From NCBI RefSeq assembly GCF_036588685.1, contig NW_026963309.1, forward strand, positions 620,001 through 684,000: 64,000 nt of DNA. Reading direction: 5' to 3'. A program made the translations under genes and the position numbers. Of the stretch, positions 16,471 through 60,741 are shown piece after piece. The stretch is from Mytilus trossulus. Lineage: Eukaryota. The notes beneath the pieces are model-generated. The model was not told the origin of the DNA. It did no database searches and worked only from the letters and a program-made list of their open reading frames with translations. Positions within the stretch are counted from its first letter, which is position 1. Each line of letters starts with the position of its first letter.

Positions 16471-18212
16471 AAAGGCTATCTTATTTTTTTCCTGTGACAC
16501 GTTCCTTTGGACTAACGGTTATCTTATTATTTTTCAATTTGTAAGCTATCTTATTTTTTTCTGCAACACCTTGCTTTCAAGCGGCACTAATGGTCATCTA
16601 ATTATTTGTCAATTTGTTATACTTTACATAAATAGGGAGACCTGCAATTACTTCACAATTTATAGGCTGTTTTGAAACATTTCACAGTACTTGCATTTGT
16701 TGAATCAGATGAATTACTACATTTTTACTAGGCATAATTTTAGTTGTACATGAGTACTGTCACCAGACTTTGACTCTATAAAAGAAAACTGGGAGAGTTA
16801 AATAGATTAGCTTCTGCATCTGACATGTCTGATACATCCATTTCATTTGAATGTCTTTTTTTCGAGAGTAAAATACATAAAACTCTGTATAAAATCATCA
16901 ATACCTCTCTCTATCTTCATATATCTAGATTTTTTGTGCATCCACGCAAGTGTGTCCACACCAGCCTCGTGTATATACATGCACCACAGAGAGTCAAATC
17001 GTTAACAAGCATACCACTGCCACTGCCCAGCTTAAAGCATCTTCCGAACATTTAAAAGTCCCTACCATGTACTGGTTACCGAAATTACACAAAAAAACAT
17101 TTAAATTCCGTTTCATCTCCGCTTCGAGTAAGTGTTCTACTACTAATCTATCAGTGCTTCTAACCACCTCCCTTACTACTATCAAAGAACTGGTTATTAA
17201 CTTTTGTAATAAAGCTTATGAAACTAATGGTATTAATTGTTTTTGGAGTGTTAAAAATTCTTTAGAGGTTTTAGATAAAATACATGCTTTCAATGGTCCT
17301 TACAATTCTGTTGACAGTTATGATTTTTCTACTCTGTAAACTACACTTCCACACAATCTTATAAAGAAAAAGTTTTTGTATTTGATAAAATGGTCTTTCG
17401 AAAAATCTCATTGTAATTTTATTTGCTGTAACTCGTTTAAGGCCTTTTTCTGTAACGAAAAAGGAAAGTATGCTAGATACACTTACTGGAAATGTGAGGA
17501 TATGATTGAAGCTTTAAACTTTCTGCTTGATAACATTTATGTACGTTTCGGCGATAAAGTGTATCGTCAGGTAGTAGGTATTCCTATGGGCACCAACTGT
17601 GCCCCTTTAATAGCAGATTTATTTCTATATTGCTATGAATCTCAGTTTATGACTAAACTCAGTAAAGACCCATCATTGTTACATTTGGTTGATACATTCA
17701 AAAATACCTACCGTTATCTGGATGATATTTTTTCGTTGAATAATCCAGAGTTCTCTAAATATACTTCAGAAATTTACCCAAACGAACTTACTTTAACTAA
17801 ATCTAACATAAACAGCAGCAGTTGTCCTTTTCTAGATTTAGACATTTCAATTTCAAACGGGAAACTTCACACTAAAATTTACGACAAAAGAGACGATTTT
17901 TCATTTCCTATTGTTAATTTTCCTTTTTTAGACGGCGATGTGCCTTTGGTTCCATCATACGGTGTTTATATATCGCAACTCGTTCGGTTTGCCCGTGTGT
18001 GTTCTGATGTCATAGATTTTAACGAACGTAATCAATGCATCACTGGTAAATTGTTGTGTCCCATAAATTACTTAAAACTTTTACTAAATTCTTTCATAGA
18101 TACAAAGATTTGATTAGTAAATTTGGCTATACCTGTAGAAAGCTTATTAAAAATGGTATTTCACATCCTAAATTTTATGGTAATATTGTACTTAAAGCGA
18201 GGAAATCACTAT

Positions 18213-35459: not shown

Positions 35460-37605
35460 CAGCCTCGTGTATATACATGCACCACAGAGAGTCAAATCGT
35501 TAACAAGCATACCACTGCCACTGCCCCGCTTAAAGCATCTTCCGAACATTTAAAAGTCCCTACCATGTACTGGTTACCGAAATTACACAAAAAAACATTT
35601 AAATTCCGTTTCATCTCCGCTTCGAGTAAGTGTTCTACTACTAATCTATCATTGCTTCTAACCACCTCCCTTACTACTATCAAAGAACTGGTTATTAACT
35701 TTTGTAATAAAGCTTATGAAAATAATGGTATTAATTATTTTTGGAGTGTAAAAAATTCTTTAGAGGTTTTAGATAAAATACATGCTTTCAATGGTCCTTA
35801 CAATTCTGTTGACAGTTATGATTTTTCTTCTCTGTAAACTACACTTCCACACAATCTTAATATAAAAAAAAAGTTTTTGTGTTTGATAAAATGGTTTTTC
35901 GAAAAATCTCATTGTAATTTTATTTGCTGTAACTCGTTTAAGGCCTTTTTCTGTAACGAAAAAGGAAAGTATGCTAGATACACTTACTGGAAATGTGAGG
36001 ATATGATTGAAGCTTTAAACTTTCTGCTTGATAACATTTATGTACGTTTCGGCGATAAAGTGTATCGTCAGGTAGTATGTATTCCTATGGGCACCAACGG
36101 TGCCCCTTTAATAGCAGATTTATTTCTATATTGCTATGAATCTCAGTTTATGACCAAACTCAGTAAAGACCCATCATTGTTACATTTGGTTGATACATTC
36201 AAAAATACCTACCGTTATCTGGATGATATTTTTTCGTTGAATAATCCAGAGTTCTCTAAATATACTTCAGAAATTTACCCAAACGAACTTACTTTAACTA
36301 AATCTAACATAAACAGCAGCAGTTGTCCTTTTCTAGATTTAGACATTTCAATTTCAAACGGGAAACTTCACACTAAAATTTACGACAAAAGAGACGATTT
36401 TTCATTTCCTTTTGTTAATTTTCCTTTTTTAGACGGCGATGTGCCTTTGGTTCCATCATACGGTGTTTATATATCGCAACTCGTTCGGTTTGCCCGTGTG
36501 TGTTCTGATGTCATAGATTTTAACGAACGTAATGAATGCATCACTGGTAAATTGTTGTGTCAGGGATTTCGATACCATAAATTACTTAAAACTTTTACTA
36601 AATTCTTTCATAGATACAAAGATTTGATTAGTAAATTTGGCTATACCTGTAGAAAGCTTATTAAAAATGGTATTTCACATCCTAAATTTTATGGTAATAT
36701 TGTACTTAAAGCGAGGAAATCACTATGTGATCCTTGTAAACTCATCGAACCTTTAAACAAACTTATAAGTAAGGGTTATCGTACCAATATTGTAATTAGA
36801 TCTCTGAATATATTTCACAGTATATGTCAGTAACTGCGAGTACTCTCAAATCGTATTTTCTTGTTAATTCGACCTGTTGATACTGTTTTATAATGCTTTT
36901 TTGTTATTTTTTCTATTTATATGGATCTTGTCTGTACACCAGCTTTGATTATTTGTAATATCTTCAATTTTTCACTTATTCTTACAACATTTGTAAAAAC
37001 TTCAAGATTATAAAAAAACGGTTTTTTTTCTAAAGTGAACTTTGATTGGTTAAATATTTCTCAGTTTTGTCCTGTGTTTGAATTTGTTTGTTAGCGTTTT
37101 GGTCATGAATGTTTGTCTCTAATATTTAATTAACTGTGCATTTGTATTCAGATATCGCAGATCAAATTTATTCGTTCATTGTGTAATCATACGTTTTTTT
37201 ATTGAGTTAAGTCTGCCAATTGATATTTTATCGTATGTTTTTCTATGTTGTGATGTTATGCTATTGTTTCAGAAAGAGGGAGAAGGTTTGGATCCATTAA
37301 AACGTTTAATCCCGCTGCAAATGTTTGCACCTGTCCTAAGTCAGGAATCTGATGTACAATAGTTGTCGTTTGTTTATGTAATATATACGTGTTTCTCGTT
37401 TCTCGTTTTGTTTATATAGATTAGACCGTTGGTTTCCCCGTTTGAATGGTTTTACACTAGTAATTTTTGGGGCCCTTTATAGCTTGTTGTTCGGTGTGAG
37501 CCAAGGCTCCGTGTTGAAGGCCGTACTTTAACCTTTAATGGTTTACTTTTTAAATTGTTATTTGGATGGAGAGTTGTCTCATTGGCACTCACACCACATC
37601 TTCCT
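35460..37605 (+). mobile_element. Duplicate 5'-truncated Penelope-like retroelement (RT pseudogene)
   Basis: ORFs 35448-35837 and 35877-36833 carry the same RT motifs and the same TAA nonsense codon. Confidence 0.85.
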
Positions 37606-49511: not shown

Positions 49512-50878
49512 TAATTATCAATCAATCAATGGTACTAGACATACACGTCAAGTCGTATTTTTAAACGTGCTAGTTGGCAAGGTAAACGTCAATCCTATAG
49601 AAACTTCACCCAACCAGGACAGAATATGCTGACTCCAGAGACCATCAGTCTTTGTTCTTATTCCTAAATGCGTGCAAAGCGGAAAAGCTGAAAATACCAA
49701 TTTGAAAATAAATACCGAGTTTGGACCCGACCGGGATGGTCGAACCCACGACCTGACGCACTCCCCGAGTCGTGCAGGCTCCTTTGAGCCAAGAGACAAA
49801 AAATAAGTGGTTTGTGATAAGGAAAGATAGAAATACACCGTAAACATCAACTATACATTTATTTTTATTTCTACATGCATAAATCTAGTGTCATATATCA
49901 GACACCATTTTGTATTCCTTCACAAATGACGACAAAAATATATTATGTACAAATTTATTGTTTTTAATGCTTCCTTTTTCTGCTGTTAAAATACTTTTTA
50001 TAGCAAAAGTTTCTATTGTCAATCTTGGTCATTAATATTTATAGTTTTTTTTTCGTTCTATTCTCGGTCATTATCTACCAATTCGACATCATTTTTCTCT
50101 CTCTTTCATATAAACTAAACAATTCAATAAATTTAATGAAAACCACTTTCTGTAACTACAATACCAAACTAGCATATATTCAATTCATTTGAGAAAGTAA
50201 AGTTGTTTTCTTTTTTTATTTCTCTTTATTCTTTATTTACATCATATATTGAGAAAGCTTTGAAAAAGCTTTCTTTTATTTTTTTCTCTTTGTCATTTAT
50301 TTACAACATTACTAAGTTTTATTTTCGTATAAAGTAAAAAAATAAACTAAAAAATATAAAGGTTCTCTTTTCAGTATTTGGCCTAACAATACTCGAGACA
50401 TGCATGTACATACTTCAATACATTATAAGAAAGAAACGCTACAAACTTGCAAAAGCAGAATTAGCCAATATGTTCACTTCTTCTTAAAACAAAATAAAAA
50501 TGTAAAAAAAAAAAAAATCTTCAAGACATCTTTTTTCCGTTTATCATATATGAAACTACGAAATAATTCTGTCTTTTTCTATAGCAAGCCGTTTAACTAT
50601 TTATTCTAAACTTCAAGATATCTAATAAAACTTGATGTTAAGATATCTCATATAGTTTATAAGATATCTTGTATATAAAATTGAGAATGGAAATGGGGAA
50701 TGTGCCAAAGAGAAAACAACCCGACCATAGAGCAGAGACAATAAATATGTCTTCTGAAATTTTCAAGCTATATATATATATCCAGAGACATATATTGTTT
50801 GGCACAACTTTTTGGAATTTTGGATCCTCAATGCTCTTCAACTTTGTATTTATTTGGCTTTTTACTATTTTGATCTGA

Positions 50879-50922
50879 GCGTCACTGATGAGTCTTATGT
50901 AGACGAAACGCGCGTCTGGCGT
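50879..50922 (+). ncRNA. Minimal type I hammerhead ribozyme
   Basis: GCGTCA (stem I) CTGATGA GTCT-TATGT-AGAC (stem II) GAAA C-GCGC-G TC^ TGGCGT (stem I). All core nucleotides present; predicted cleavage after 50916. Confidence 0.85.
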
Positions 50923-52608
50923 ATAAAACTATAATCCTGGTACTTTTGATAACTATATAATAAAATATCACTATGTCTCTGGTATATCTTATGCAAACTT
51001 GATTATACAAGTTATCTTTGGTATCTTGAAGTTAGAATAAATAACGAAACTATTTGTCATTCTTTTTGATAATTACATTACCGTACTAGGGAGACTTGGA
51101 ATACACGTTTATCATCAAATATATTTTTTGTTCTTTTAAAAAACAAAATTATAAAAAAATAAATGAACTTTTTTTTCTCTATTTGCATAACATAAAACAA
51201 CATATACAATATAAAGGTTCTCTCTTTTCACATTAAAGCATGCATTACTAGTATAGCATACACTTTAAGTCATTTAAGAAGGCAAAACTACAAATTTGCA
51301 AAAGCTATGAAAACTCATTTTCAATATAAATCGAGGTATATTGTGCTGTTTATAAAACAAATTGTTAAAAAAATTAAATGCAAACGTCATCATTTTTTTT
51401 TCTCCTTTAAAATGTAAAGGGGGGGTTTAAAATTTTGTCAGCAACTTTACTAGAACTTTAAAATACAAATCTTAAAACTAACCAAACACAGAATATATCT
51501 TAAAACTATAAAAATAAAACATAATTTGGTAATCAAGTTTGAACCAGACCATCTTTTAAAATGCTTGAAAATCGTCAAATCATGATTATATTTTTTCCTA
51601 ATACAACTATAGTTAAAAACGATACACTAAAAAAGCATGTAACTCATAAGCTTGAACCATGCTGAATTGTTAAAAATCTTCAAGAATATATGATGTGCAA
51701 AATAAAATTTTAAATTTTCAAAATTATTAAAATAACCATAATACTGTTTTAGATTAAAAACTATCTAAAATCTATGAAAATCATCGAAATGGTATAAACT
51801 CGTTAAAATATTCAACTTTTATACGTAGATAAAGAAGTTAAATCAGAAGTTTTAAAATTCGCAATTGCAGCTAGCTTCAAAATTGTAAAAAGAACACTTG
51901 TAAAACTTGTGATAAAAGACCTAGTTATAAATATGAAGATTCAAAAGCACACATGGGGGTCATTTAAGGTACATGTATTACAATGCAGGGGCAACCAGAG
52001 GAACTCCTGTATTGTCAGTGTAAAAAGTGCGTAAAAATTACGAGCTTTGAAGACGAGTCTTGATCATTATAAAACTTGTTTTAAAAGTCGACAAAAAAAG
52101 TACAATTCTAAAATGTTATTATTTGCAAGTTTGTGAGATAAAAAAGAAATCGGTGAACTTGTTTTAAAATTCTATGATTATCTATAACAAAATAAATAAA
52201 ATTCAAATCTAATTAGATATACTGGGGTCCAAGCAGGGATATTTAAAAAATACATTTTTAAAATCTGTTTTTAAAACTCTAGGGTATCTCAAATAGCAAA
52301 CAACATCGATAAAAATTTAAAATTTAAAAAGCACCAATTTGACATTTAAAGAAAAATATAGAAATTTAAAATGTTATTAAACGTTTTCGATATTTAAAAT
52401 TGAATTAGACTCTCGCAATCTTGTTATCAAAACGCATTTAAAAGATTTAAAGAATATTTCACAAATTAAAAGTATTAACAAAAAGTTTAAAAAATATATC
52501 GTTTCATCTTGAATAAAATATTGTCTTCCATTCAAATTTGGCCATCTTTTCACGTCATATACTAAAGGCGATCTTCTTTCGTCAATAAGGCGATCTTCTT
52601 CCATCAAA

Positions 52609-53899: not shown

Positions 53900-54283
53900 A
53901 ATAACATTAACGGTACCAATTTTTCGGCACCAGATGCGCATTTCGAAAATACATGTCTCTTCAGTGATGCTCGTGTTAAAAATATGTAAAATCCAAAGCT
54001 AATATAAAAGATGAAGAGCTATAATCCAAAAGTTCCAAGAAGTATAGCCAAATCCGTGAAAAGGAATCAGAGCTTTGCCTAAGGGAGATACATTCCTTAA
54101 TTTATATTTTTTATATCATTTTGTAACAGCAAATTTAATAACACAAAAAATCCGTATTTTCATGCCAGTACCGGAGTACTGGCTACTGGGCGGATGATAC
54201 CCTCGGGGAGTAACAGTCCACCAGCAGAGGCATTGACCCAGTGGTAGTAATAACATTAACGGTACCAATTTTTCTGTACCAGA
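53900..54283 (-). mobile_element. Non-LTR retrozyme-like element (349-nt monomer + terminal redundancy)
   Basis: Direct repeat AATAACATTAACGGTACCAATTTTTC..ACCAGA at 53900-53934 and 54249-54283; contains a hammerhead motif. Confidence 0.75.
53927..53970 (-). ncRNA. Minimal type I hammerhead ribozyme
   Basis: Minus strand GCATCA CTGAAGA GAC-ATGTATT-TTC GAAA T-GCGC-A TC^ TGGTGC. Core intact; one mismatch in stem II. Confidence 0.75.
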
Positions 54284-59588: not shown

Positions 59589-60741
59589 TATATATATATA
59601 TATATTGCGAAAGCAAATTTACAGATTTAACATTGTTGGGTTGATGTTTAGACGAGTTGTATATATATATATATATATATTCATAAGTACGTCTGAGTCA
59701 GTGACAACCCTACAACAGATGTATCCATCGGATCGCCATCAATGATGGTGATACATGGCTGTGTACATAATGTATATACAACTCGTCTAAACATCAACCC
59801 AACAATGTTAGATCTGTAAATTTGCTTTCGCAAATTTTTGGTTCTTCCCTCGCCGGGATTCGAACCCATGCTACTGTGATATCGTGACACCAAATCGCCT
59901 GCACTGCAGCCGTCCCGCTAGACCACACGACCACCTGGGCTCTCAAAAAAAGAGCTTTCGGTGGCCATATGTTACCTTTCCACGTCAGTTTTAATCTAGC
60001 GGCGTACTACAGTACATGATATATAAAGCATGAAGATGTTATTGTTACAGATCAGCTAAATTATCTATAGTAAAGGATCCTACAAATTAATGTAAGATAC
60101 AGTCACAGAAAATAATTATATTCATAAGTACGTCTGAGTCAGTGACAACCCTACAACAGATGTATCCATCGGATCGCCATCAATGATGGTGATACATGGC
60201 TGTGTACATAATGTATATACAACTCGTCTAAACATCAACCCAACAATGTTAGATCTGTAAATTTGCTTTCGCAAATTTTTGGTTCTTCCCTCGCCGGGAT
60301 TCGAACCCATGCTACTGTGATATCGTGACACCAAAACATCTGTTGTAGGGTTGTCACTGACTCAGACGTACTTATGAATATAATTATTTTCTGTGACTGT
60401 ATCTTACATTAATTTGTAGGATCCTTTACTATAGATAATTTAGCTGATCTGTAACAATAACATCTTCATGCCTTATATATCATGTACTGTAGTACGCCGC
60501 TAGATTAAAACTGACGTGGAAAGGTAACATATGGCCACCGAAAGCTCTTTTTTTGAGAGCCCAGGTGGTCGTGTGGTCTAGCGGGACGGCTGCAGTGCAG
60601 GCGATTTGGTGTCACGATATCACAGTAGCATGGGTTCGAATCCCGGCGAGGGAAGAACCAAAAATTTGCGAAAGCAAATTTACAGATCTAACATTGTTGG
60701 GTTGATGTTTAGACGAGTTGTATATATATATATATATATAT
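59589..60741. mobile_element. tRNA-headed 441-bp repeat in tandem and inverted arrangement within (TA)n
   Basis: A-box-like TGGTCGTGTGG (60566) and B-box GGTTCGAATCC (60633). 59681 and 60122 are direct repeats; 60336-60720 is the inverse of part of the left array. Confidence 0.75.

Follow-up and report, generated by a model that had tools for sequence, protein, structure and literature searches.

The retrozyme copy at positions 53900-54283 of the window (the whole 64,000-nt stretch of Mytilus trossulus DNA that was analysed) ends at the edge of an RNA domain, and this domain is common to mussel retrozymes and to a Naiad element of the same genome. From sequence comparison and from analogy with another PLE, we think it likely that the Naiad protein binds the shared domain, starts target-primed reverse transcription just upstream of it and copies round the RNA circle. 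In the accessible text of PMC7229834, PMC7761336 and a 2026 preprint (bioRxiv 10.64898/2026.07.22.740005), the enzyme that copies animal retrozyme circles and the priming of an endless circle are left open. Our analysis offers a named candidate enzyme in the same genome, a cis element of about 70 nt with a covarying structure, and a candidate start site to within a few bases.

Structure and ends of the retrozyme copy

The features are listed in Table 1. On the minus strand, TC at 54283-54282 precedes the 349-nt unit (54281-53933). The hammerhead is predicted to cut after C53933, and the following 33 nt (53932-53900) repeat the start of the unit with two differences. Thus, the layout described in the sequence-only reading, an element of about 350 nt with a hammerhead that continues about 33 nt past the cut into the same sequence, is confirmed. 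The unit (349 nt, 37% GC) falls within the 150-450 bp head-to-tail units with GC under 45-50% that characterize retrozymes. As in metazoan non-LTR retrozymes, the hammerhead is of type I, with the core and stems I and III present: stem I is GCAUCA/UGGUGC and the core consists of CUGAAGA (53964-53958) and GAAA (53944-53941). The stem II mismatch, which had been noted earlier, is C.U, and stem II did not fold when it was folded alone. This stem II variant was absent from the sampled family hammerheads (0 of 54), and the common paired form was present in 42 of the 54 sampled family-1 hammerheads. Stem II is also paired in the counterpart copy on contig C5, and the mismatch is private to the copy at 53900. 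Rfam did not score the hammerhead of this copy at E ≤ 1; it scored the family-2 hammerhead (50879-50922, plus strand) at 33 bits.

Table 1 Positions of the retrozyme copy, its parts, its neighbours and related arrays. Positions are those of the window unless a contig is given.
Feature	Position	Strand	Remarks
Retrozyme insertion, family 1, 1.1 units, 384 nt	53900..54283	-	No target-site duplication found
349-nt unit, from cut site to cut site; predicted circle	53933..54281	-	37% GC
Structured domain common to the Naiad 5′ end, unit +34 to +101	54181..54248	-	Predicted docking site setting the start of reverse transcription
Type I hammerhead	53927..53970	-	Cut after 53933; stem II 53957-53945 with private C.U mismatch
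33-nt overhang past the cut	53900..53932	-	3′ terminus common to the whole family at 53900; putative first copied base
nanos ORF, 237 aa	52609..53322	-	Neighbour only
Retrozyme family 2, 5′-truncated copy, 157 nt	50799..50955	+	Hammerhead 50879-50922; end about 40 nt past its cut; missing from the C5 counterpart
Mini-Naiad array L266, 131 nt x 7	G000:C12:27544288-27545099		No hammerhead
Mini-Naiad array L267, 140 nt x about 2.4	G000:C10:46617708-46617873		No hammerhead

Upstream of the first cut site only two bases (TC) match. Therefore, this site is not a second hammerhead. The copy at 53900, which we regard as 5′-truncated, has a single hammerhead; other family-1 copies hold several. The tandem of two hammerheads, by which active copies of metazoan non-LTR retrozymes are recognized, is absent here. 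Because the copy has one hammerhead, we predict that it cannot release a monomer unaided. In the available text of PMC7229834 and PMC7761336, invertebrate hammerhead motifs are reported to cut as monomers, and for this reason a double-hammerhead requirement for cutting was set aside.

The 24-nt tail of the element has 2,768 exact matches in the 1.3-Gb assembly searched, versus 0 for the reversed control. Therefore, the element is not a chance sequence. The number of family-1 loci is estimated at about 2,000 genome-wide (the first 100 tail matches form 78 clusters over 49.6 Mb, counted by hand). The copy at 53900 is one ordinary member of an abundant mussel repeat with thousands of copies. For the family-2 hammerhead, 11,014 exact genome matches were found (reversed control, 0).

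Family-1 arrays reach about 14.6 units and have a single fixed 3′ end and scattered 5′ ends. This polarity is the one expected when target-primed reverse transcription stops short of the 5′ end. The same truncation and fixed-3′-end polarity are described for PLEs in the available part of PMC8557442. In a sample of 60 family-1 loci, the 3′ end lies at +33 to +38 past the cut in 57 of the 59 non-edge loci, and only two of 60 last tails run on into the domain; the loci, which include two duplicate pairs, were taken in order along C1 and selected by the exact +10 to +33 word, so that earlier ends are invisible. Their lengths range from 32 to 1,673 nt with a median near 245. When arrays were selected by whole-unit score, 34 of 35 ended at +31 to +37. 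Loose contig ends at 53900 were present in 78, 140 and 121 contigs of three DNA runs. No target-site duplication was detected at the copy at 53900, and none was consistent across the 60 family-1 loci. Thus, the one fixed 3′ end and the scattered 5′ ends of the arrays support the earlier suggestion that the copy at 53900 derives from a circular or multimeric RNA by reverse transcription. The same overhang of 33 nt recurs across the family, and the boundary of the Naiad-type RNA domain lies at its end.

The sequence-only reading had also treated the start of this copy at its own cleavage site as meaningful. Starts within 3 nt of the cut numbered 45 of 3,180, versus 10 of 2,718 at one control site (p = 2e-5, raw). 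Once arrays and false hits had been roughly removed, the excess was 1.5-1.9-fold with p = 0.1-0.3. We rejected the cut-site start as a mechanism because the enrichment is non-significant once corrected. Forty of the 45 matches were fetched: 22 were stubs of about 34 nt, eight were 1.1-unit copies like that at 53900, four were multimers, one was of another kind and five were scored with element sequence upstream. In most of the cut-site-start copies, C, TC or ATC is still present ahead of the cut. These bases could not come from a cleaved linear template and, therefore, the template ran through the cut. Among 18 long arrays, four start within -12 to +5 of the cut (p = 0.01), and this slight cut-proximal excess is not explained by pure random truncation. 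The cut-site start of the copy at 53900 is likely incidental.

The RNA domain common to retrozymes and Naiad elements

In a GIY-YIG search, 150 of 615 candidates were scored and 20 loci were fetched, which gave several PLE families. One of them, the putative partner (L149), has an apparently intact open frame of 1,056 residues that is present in many copies. A GIY-YIG domain at residues 183-273 is N-terminal, ahead of the reverse transcriptase, and YIDD lies near residue 900; Pfam RVT_1 gave no score on this frame at E ≤ 0.01. The diagnostic Naiad motifs were taken from the available text of PMC8557442, and the translation shows a Zn-finger-like motif, the KR block, CxC, GPKF (GxKF) and DKA. 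The element is near identical to Naiad_Mgal/Naiad_Mcor in the part of the PMC8557442 supplement that was available, and belongs to the same family. Its tandem units of 4,277 nt have pLTR junctions, and a hammerhead pattern scan of the Naiad loci found none. Thus, L149 has the N-terminal GIY-YIG, the motif set and the partial tandems with a pLTR and without a canonical hammerhead that define Naiads. In its pLTR, a weak twister-P1 match was seen (L149:3423-3471, 18.5 bits, E = 0.39, gathering score 67). The window itself contains two reverse transcriptase fragments on the plus strand (17340-18110 and 35838-36830), which by eye resemble the Naiad protein but belong to a more distant family.

Retrozyme positions +34 to +101 (about 68 nt) align with a stretch at the beginning of the Naiad body that immediately precedes the first ATG. 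The best alignment of family 1 covers Naiad positions 1-88, downstream of the pLTR. The alignment scores of 46 and 43 beat 200 of 200 shuffles; other AT-rich windows of the units reach up to 38-40.5 against Naiad, and plain alignment thus gives the shared domain modest support. The best alignment of family 2 to Naiad was a gappy AT-rich match and was not accepted. The predicted fold consists of three stacked helices and an invariant bulged core, to which a side hairpin is added in some Naiads. The core GCUGGUGGA/UCCCCG is invariant in all nine aligned sequences (9/9). Pairing was found in 93% of 131 cells, versus 37-55% in slid controls (six sequences). In this set of six related sequences, from whose alignment the structure itself was derived, two-sided compensatory change occurs in six of 22 pairs, a number also reached by 40 of 500 shuffles, and the covariation score was reached by one of 500 shuffles. 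The covariance model gave 72.7 bits for the copy at 53900, which stood outside the alignment of the model. Rfam had no match over the domain, in the window or in L149, and no known self-cleaving ribozyme class was found there. One viral contig matched the domain pattern; it did not match the covariance model and was rejected.

The domain also occurs in other Naiads. In the available part of the PMC8557442 supplement, the core words stand at the 5′ end of at least 15 of the 54 published Naiad consensus sequences (14 and Naiad_Olur, in which the word is split between lines), namely those of three corals, eight bivalves, three hemichordate families and a toadfish. The exact core words were not found in the other 39 of these 54. 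The flanking helices differ in sequence among the published Naiads and still pair by eye. Two Naiads from metagenome contigs (72% and 68% protein identity), both of which are in the alignment of the model, also carry the domain.

Insertion ends of several element types lie at the same boundary. All 13 Naiad termini lie no more than about 2 nt from the last base ahead of the domain, and the remaining 17 of the 30 Naiad matches are pLTR junctions that continue into the domain (some loci overlap, giving 12 distinct junctions). The genome holds 6,720 exact Naiad 3′ ends versus at most 112 Naiad-type domains. In retrozyme family 2 (354 nt), seven ends lie at +40 to +45, before the domain, and two more do so after small deletions. 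Family 3 (364 nt) also has the domain, and three ends are at the same boundary. The upstream tails of families 1, 2 and 3 and Naiad differ in sequence, and their distance to the domain is constant. Moreover, two hammerhead-less mini-Naiad arrays (Table 1), whose units join the domain and the few bases that follow it to 20-27 nt of the Naiad end, stop at the domain boundary; their junctions differ from each other.

Several other elements were seen during these searches. L243 and L259 represent a fourth related repeat, in which the domain is accompanied by another hammerhead-like motif (CUGAUGA...GAAA); L243 also contains a repeated internal unit of 167 nt that lacks this motif. A family-2 tail near Naiad 5′ ends was rejected as a Naiad end, because it is an inserted 28-nt stub. 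In one Naiad subfamily, at least three copies (L126, L127 and L131) carry this stub along in their repeat region, about 950 nt ahead of the GIY-YIG match. The C-terminal-endonuclease PLE families were rejected as partners: they had no tail or domain match, and their copies end in (TA)n. The domain model matched 0 of 11 of their loci (L151-153, 157-159 and 163-167), the pLTR-ORF junction being covered for one of the four families checked. One such family (L164 and L137), which inserts in (TA)n, has a full type I hammerhead about 100 nt past the stop codon.

Proposed copying of the RNA circle

We propose the following pathway. Tandem copies would be transcribed, cut by their hammerheads and ligated into circles of about 350 nt. 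Such circles are reported for the repeats of M. galloprovincialis in the available text of PMC7229834. Each unit carries, from +34, the same folded domain that opens the body of the Naiad transcript, as shown by sequence, covariation and position. The Naiad protein would bind this domain, nick AT-rich DNA and prime at the U-rich sequence that borders the domain on its 5′ side; we infer the nicking and priming step from the insertion ends and from analogy with the anole Poseidon element. The enzyme would then pass the ligated cut, circle on and fall off at a roughly random point, which for the copy at 53900 would have been after 384 nt. Since 150 of the 615 GIY-YIG candidates were scored, the retrozymes could instead be mobilised by a further Naiad family that has this domain. 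The proposal also suggests an origin for the thousands of short Naiad 3′ fragments.

The Poseidon element, PAc, is the closest support for internal initiation. According to the available text of PMC11167929 (Frangieh et al. 2024), PAc starts reverse transcription inside the RNA near the pLTR-ORF junction, its genomic ends map to the start sites, its targets are AT-rich and hammerhead cleavage is unneeded. Initiation occurs there upstream of an inferred protein-binding region, in which the motif is only bracketed. PAc is from a different clade than Naiad, and the assays described in that text were performed without non-autonomous or circular templates.

Retrozymes of 350-390 bp repeats were described in M. 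galloprovincialis by Cervera and de la Pena (2020), who proposed PLEs as mobilisers (PMC7229834, available text). They resemble the elements analysed here in the type I hammerhead, the tandem low-GC units of about 350 nt, the thousands of copies and the presence of at least two related hammerhead families. In contrast, the fixed 3′ end, the shared domain and a named partner are features of the present elements that do not appear in the accessible text of that account. According to the available text of a 2020 review (PMC7761336), animal retrozymes lack any conserved motif by which their autonomous element could be recognized. In the accessible part of the 2026 preprint, Xenopus retrozymes are derivatives of PLE pLTRs, and animal retrozymes are considered non-autonomous and PLE-dependent; that part deals with no mollusc, relies on homology to hammerhead-bearing pLTRs and leaves the mechanism open. 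In the mussel, homology of the retrozyme to the partner pLTR was not found. Unlike in Xenopus, what the mussel retrozyme shares with its putative partner is the beginning of the Naiad body, which follows the pLTR, and the clade is hammerhead-less. The retrozyme shares with Naiad PLEs (Craig et al. 2021, PMC8557442, available text) the 5′ truncation, partial tandems, fixed 3′ end and 5′ domain, but differs in lacking an ORF and in carrying a hammerhead, a motif absent from Naiads. The accessible text of that paper does not mention a conserved RNA structure at the 5′ end of Naiads. Thus, the retrozyme family, the PLE link (proposed in 2020 and supported in the Xenopus preprint of 2026) and internal initiation are already known; Naiad as the candidate partner, the putative cis domain and the shared boundary appear to be new. 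In the open-access literature searched, we found no report of Naiad as a retrozyme partner, of the fixed end or of the domain structure.

We also consider a broader idea to be slightly more probable than not: Naiads from corals to fish may carry an ancient docking RNA for their telomerase-related reverse transcriptase, which fixes the start of copying at its own upstream edge, and mussel retrozymes may be chimeric circular parasites in which this domain of about 70 nt is combined with a hammerhead, so that Naiad can roll round the circle. The domain would then be a portable insertion signal for any RNA circle.

Two other explanations of the domain were weighed against copying by Naiad. The domain may have been inherited and kept as an internal promoter or as an element for translation or stability, with the end set by the upstream U-rich tail or by a different reverse transcriptase. 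Its place directly before the first ATG in Naiads and the U-rich sequence at all ends fit this explanation. In addition, PLE promoters span the pLTR-body boundary (PMC8557442, available text) and retrozymes yield abundant RNA with no known promoter (PMC7761336, available text). However, the tails of families 1, 2, 3 and Naiad differ in sequence at a constant distance to the domain, and in the C-terminal-endonuclease PLEs 0 of 11 loci match the model and the copies end in (TA)n. We therefore regard this explanation as improbable. A promoter role of the domain can coexist with copying by Naiad.

A still less probable explanation makes the domain an undescribed second ribozyme with its self-cleavage site at its 5′ edge. 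Tandem transcripts of Naiad would then be split there and retrozyme circles opened at +33, and the RNA end so formed would be where Naiad begins to copy; the predicted insertion ends are the same. The invariant core is compatible with this, as are the lack of canonical hammerheads in Naiads (PMC8557442, available text) and the 5′ ribozymes of R2 and RTE elements (PMC7761336, available text). However, the domain has no Rfam family match, its fold is a bulged stem without a recognized catalytic core, and the ends are spread over several bases. Moreover, the available text of PMC7229834 reports that a mussel dimer construct gave the full monomer and that circles dominate in vivo. Copying by Naiad from just upstream of the putative docking domain remains our preferred explanation.

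The nanos neighbourhood

The nanos ORF (53322-52609, minus strand, 237 aa, zf-nanos E = 2.8e-23) begins about 580 nt downstream of the retrozyme end at 53900, on the same strand. C5 holds a counterpart of this region with 98% identity, which is either the other haplotype or a duplicate. The sequence-only reading had proposed presence/absence polymorphism as a check, and the two elements gave different results. The family-1 insertion is present in the C5 counterpart as in the window, and it is at least 7% diverged from the next best copies. In contrast, the family-2 copy at 50879 is replaced by other sequence on C5 (by the C5 comparison alone). In one contig of run X5, which is labelled as another organism, the downstream flank is joined to the insertion by about 36 letters. 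No empty allele at nanos was seen in the contigs of the DNA runs; X1 and X7 had no cover on both flanks and are uninformative. In run X10, perhaps RNA, the nanos contig stops at 53304 with no cover up to the element, and such contigs cannot show transcript ends.

It had been suggested that the copy cuts transcripts reading through into nanos, and that nanos is bracketed by inward-facing hammerheads. The probability of a same-strand family-1 copy within 600 nt of one given gene is about 0.05% (p about 0.0005). However, 14-28 genes are expected to have such a copy by chance, assuming 30,000-60,000 genes, and nothing points to regulation of nanos by the copy. The bracketing does not hold, because the 50879 element is absent on C5. 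The assembly has seven zf-nanos matches: besides the window locus and its counterpart on C5 there are five more, of which one is interrupted by a stop. No hammerhead was found within 1.5 kb of the zinc finger at these five (0/5), a span that catches the one in the window. Co-option of the copy at 53900, with the 50879 hammerhead guarding the other side, is very unlikely: the strand, the distance of about 580 nt, the low chance for one given gene, the insertion in the C5 counterpart with stem II paired and the X5 contig that bridges the downstream junction are in its favour, but stem II is broken in the copy at 53900, C5 lacks the 50879 element, the five other nanos-like loci have no nearby hammerhead, and there are about 2,000 family-1 loci and 11,014 family-2 hammerhead matches. 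Co-option would concern the later fate of the copy and is compatible with copying by Naiad. The position beside nanos is likely due to chance and is itself of little weight.

Elsewhere in the window, a C2H2 zinc-finger gene is present in four copies on the minus strand (855-1, 13766-11763, 31835-30108 and 43151-41964), with 84-nt finger repeats and a 48-nt (16-residue) repeat, within large segmental repeats. An inverted repeat at 59770-60729 has 394-nt arms that are 99% complementary and 172 nt apart.
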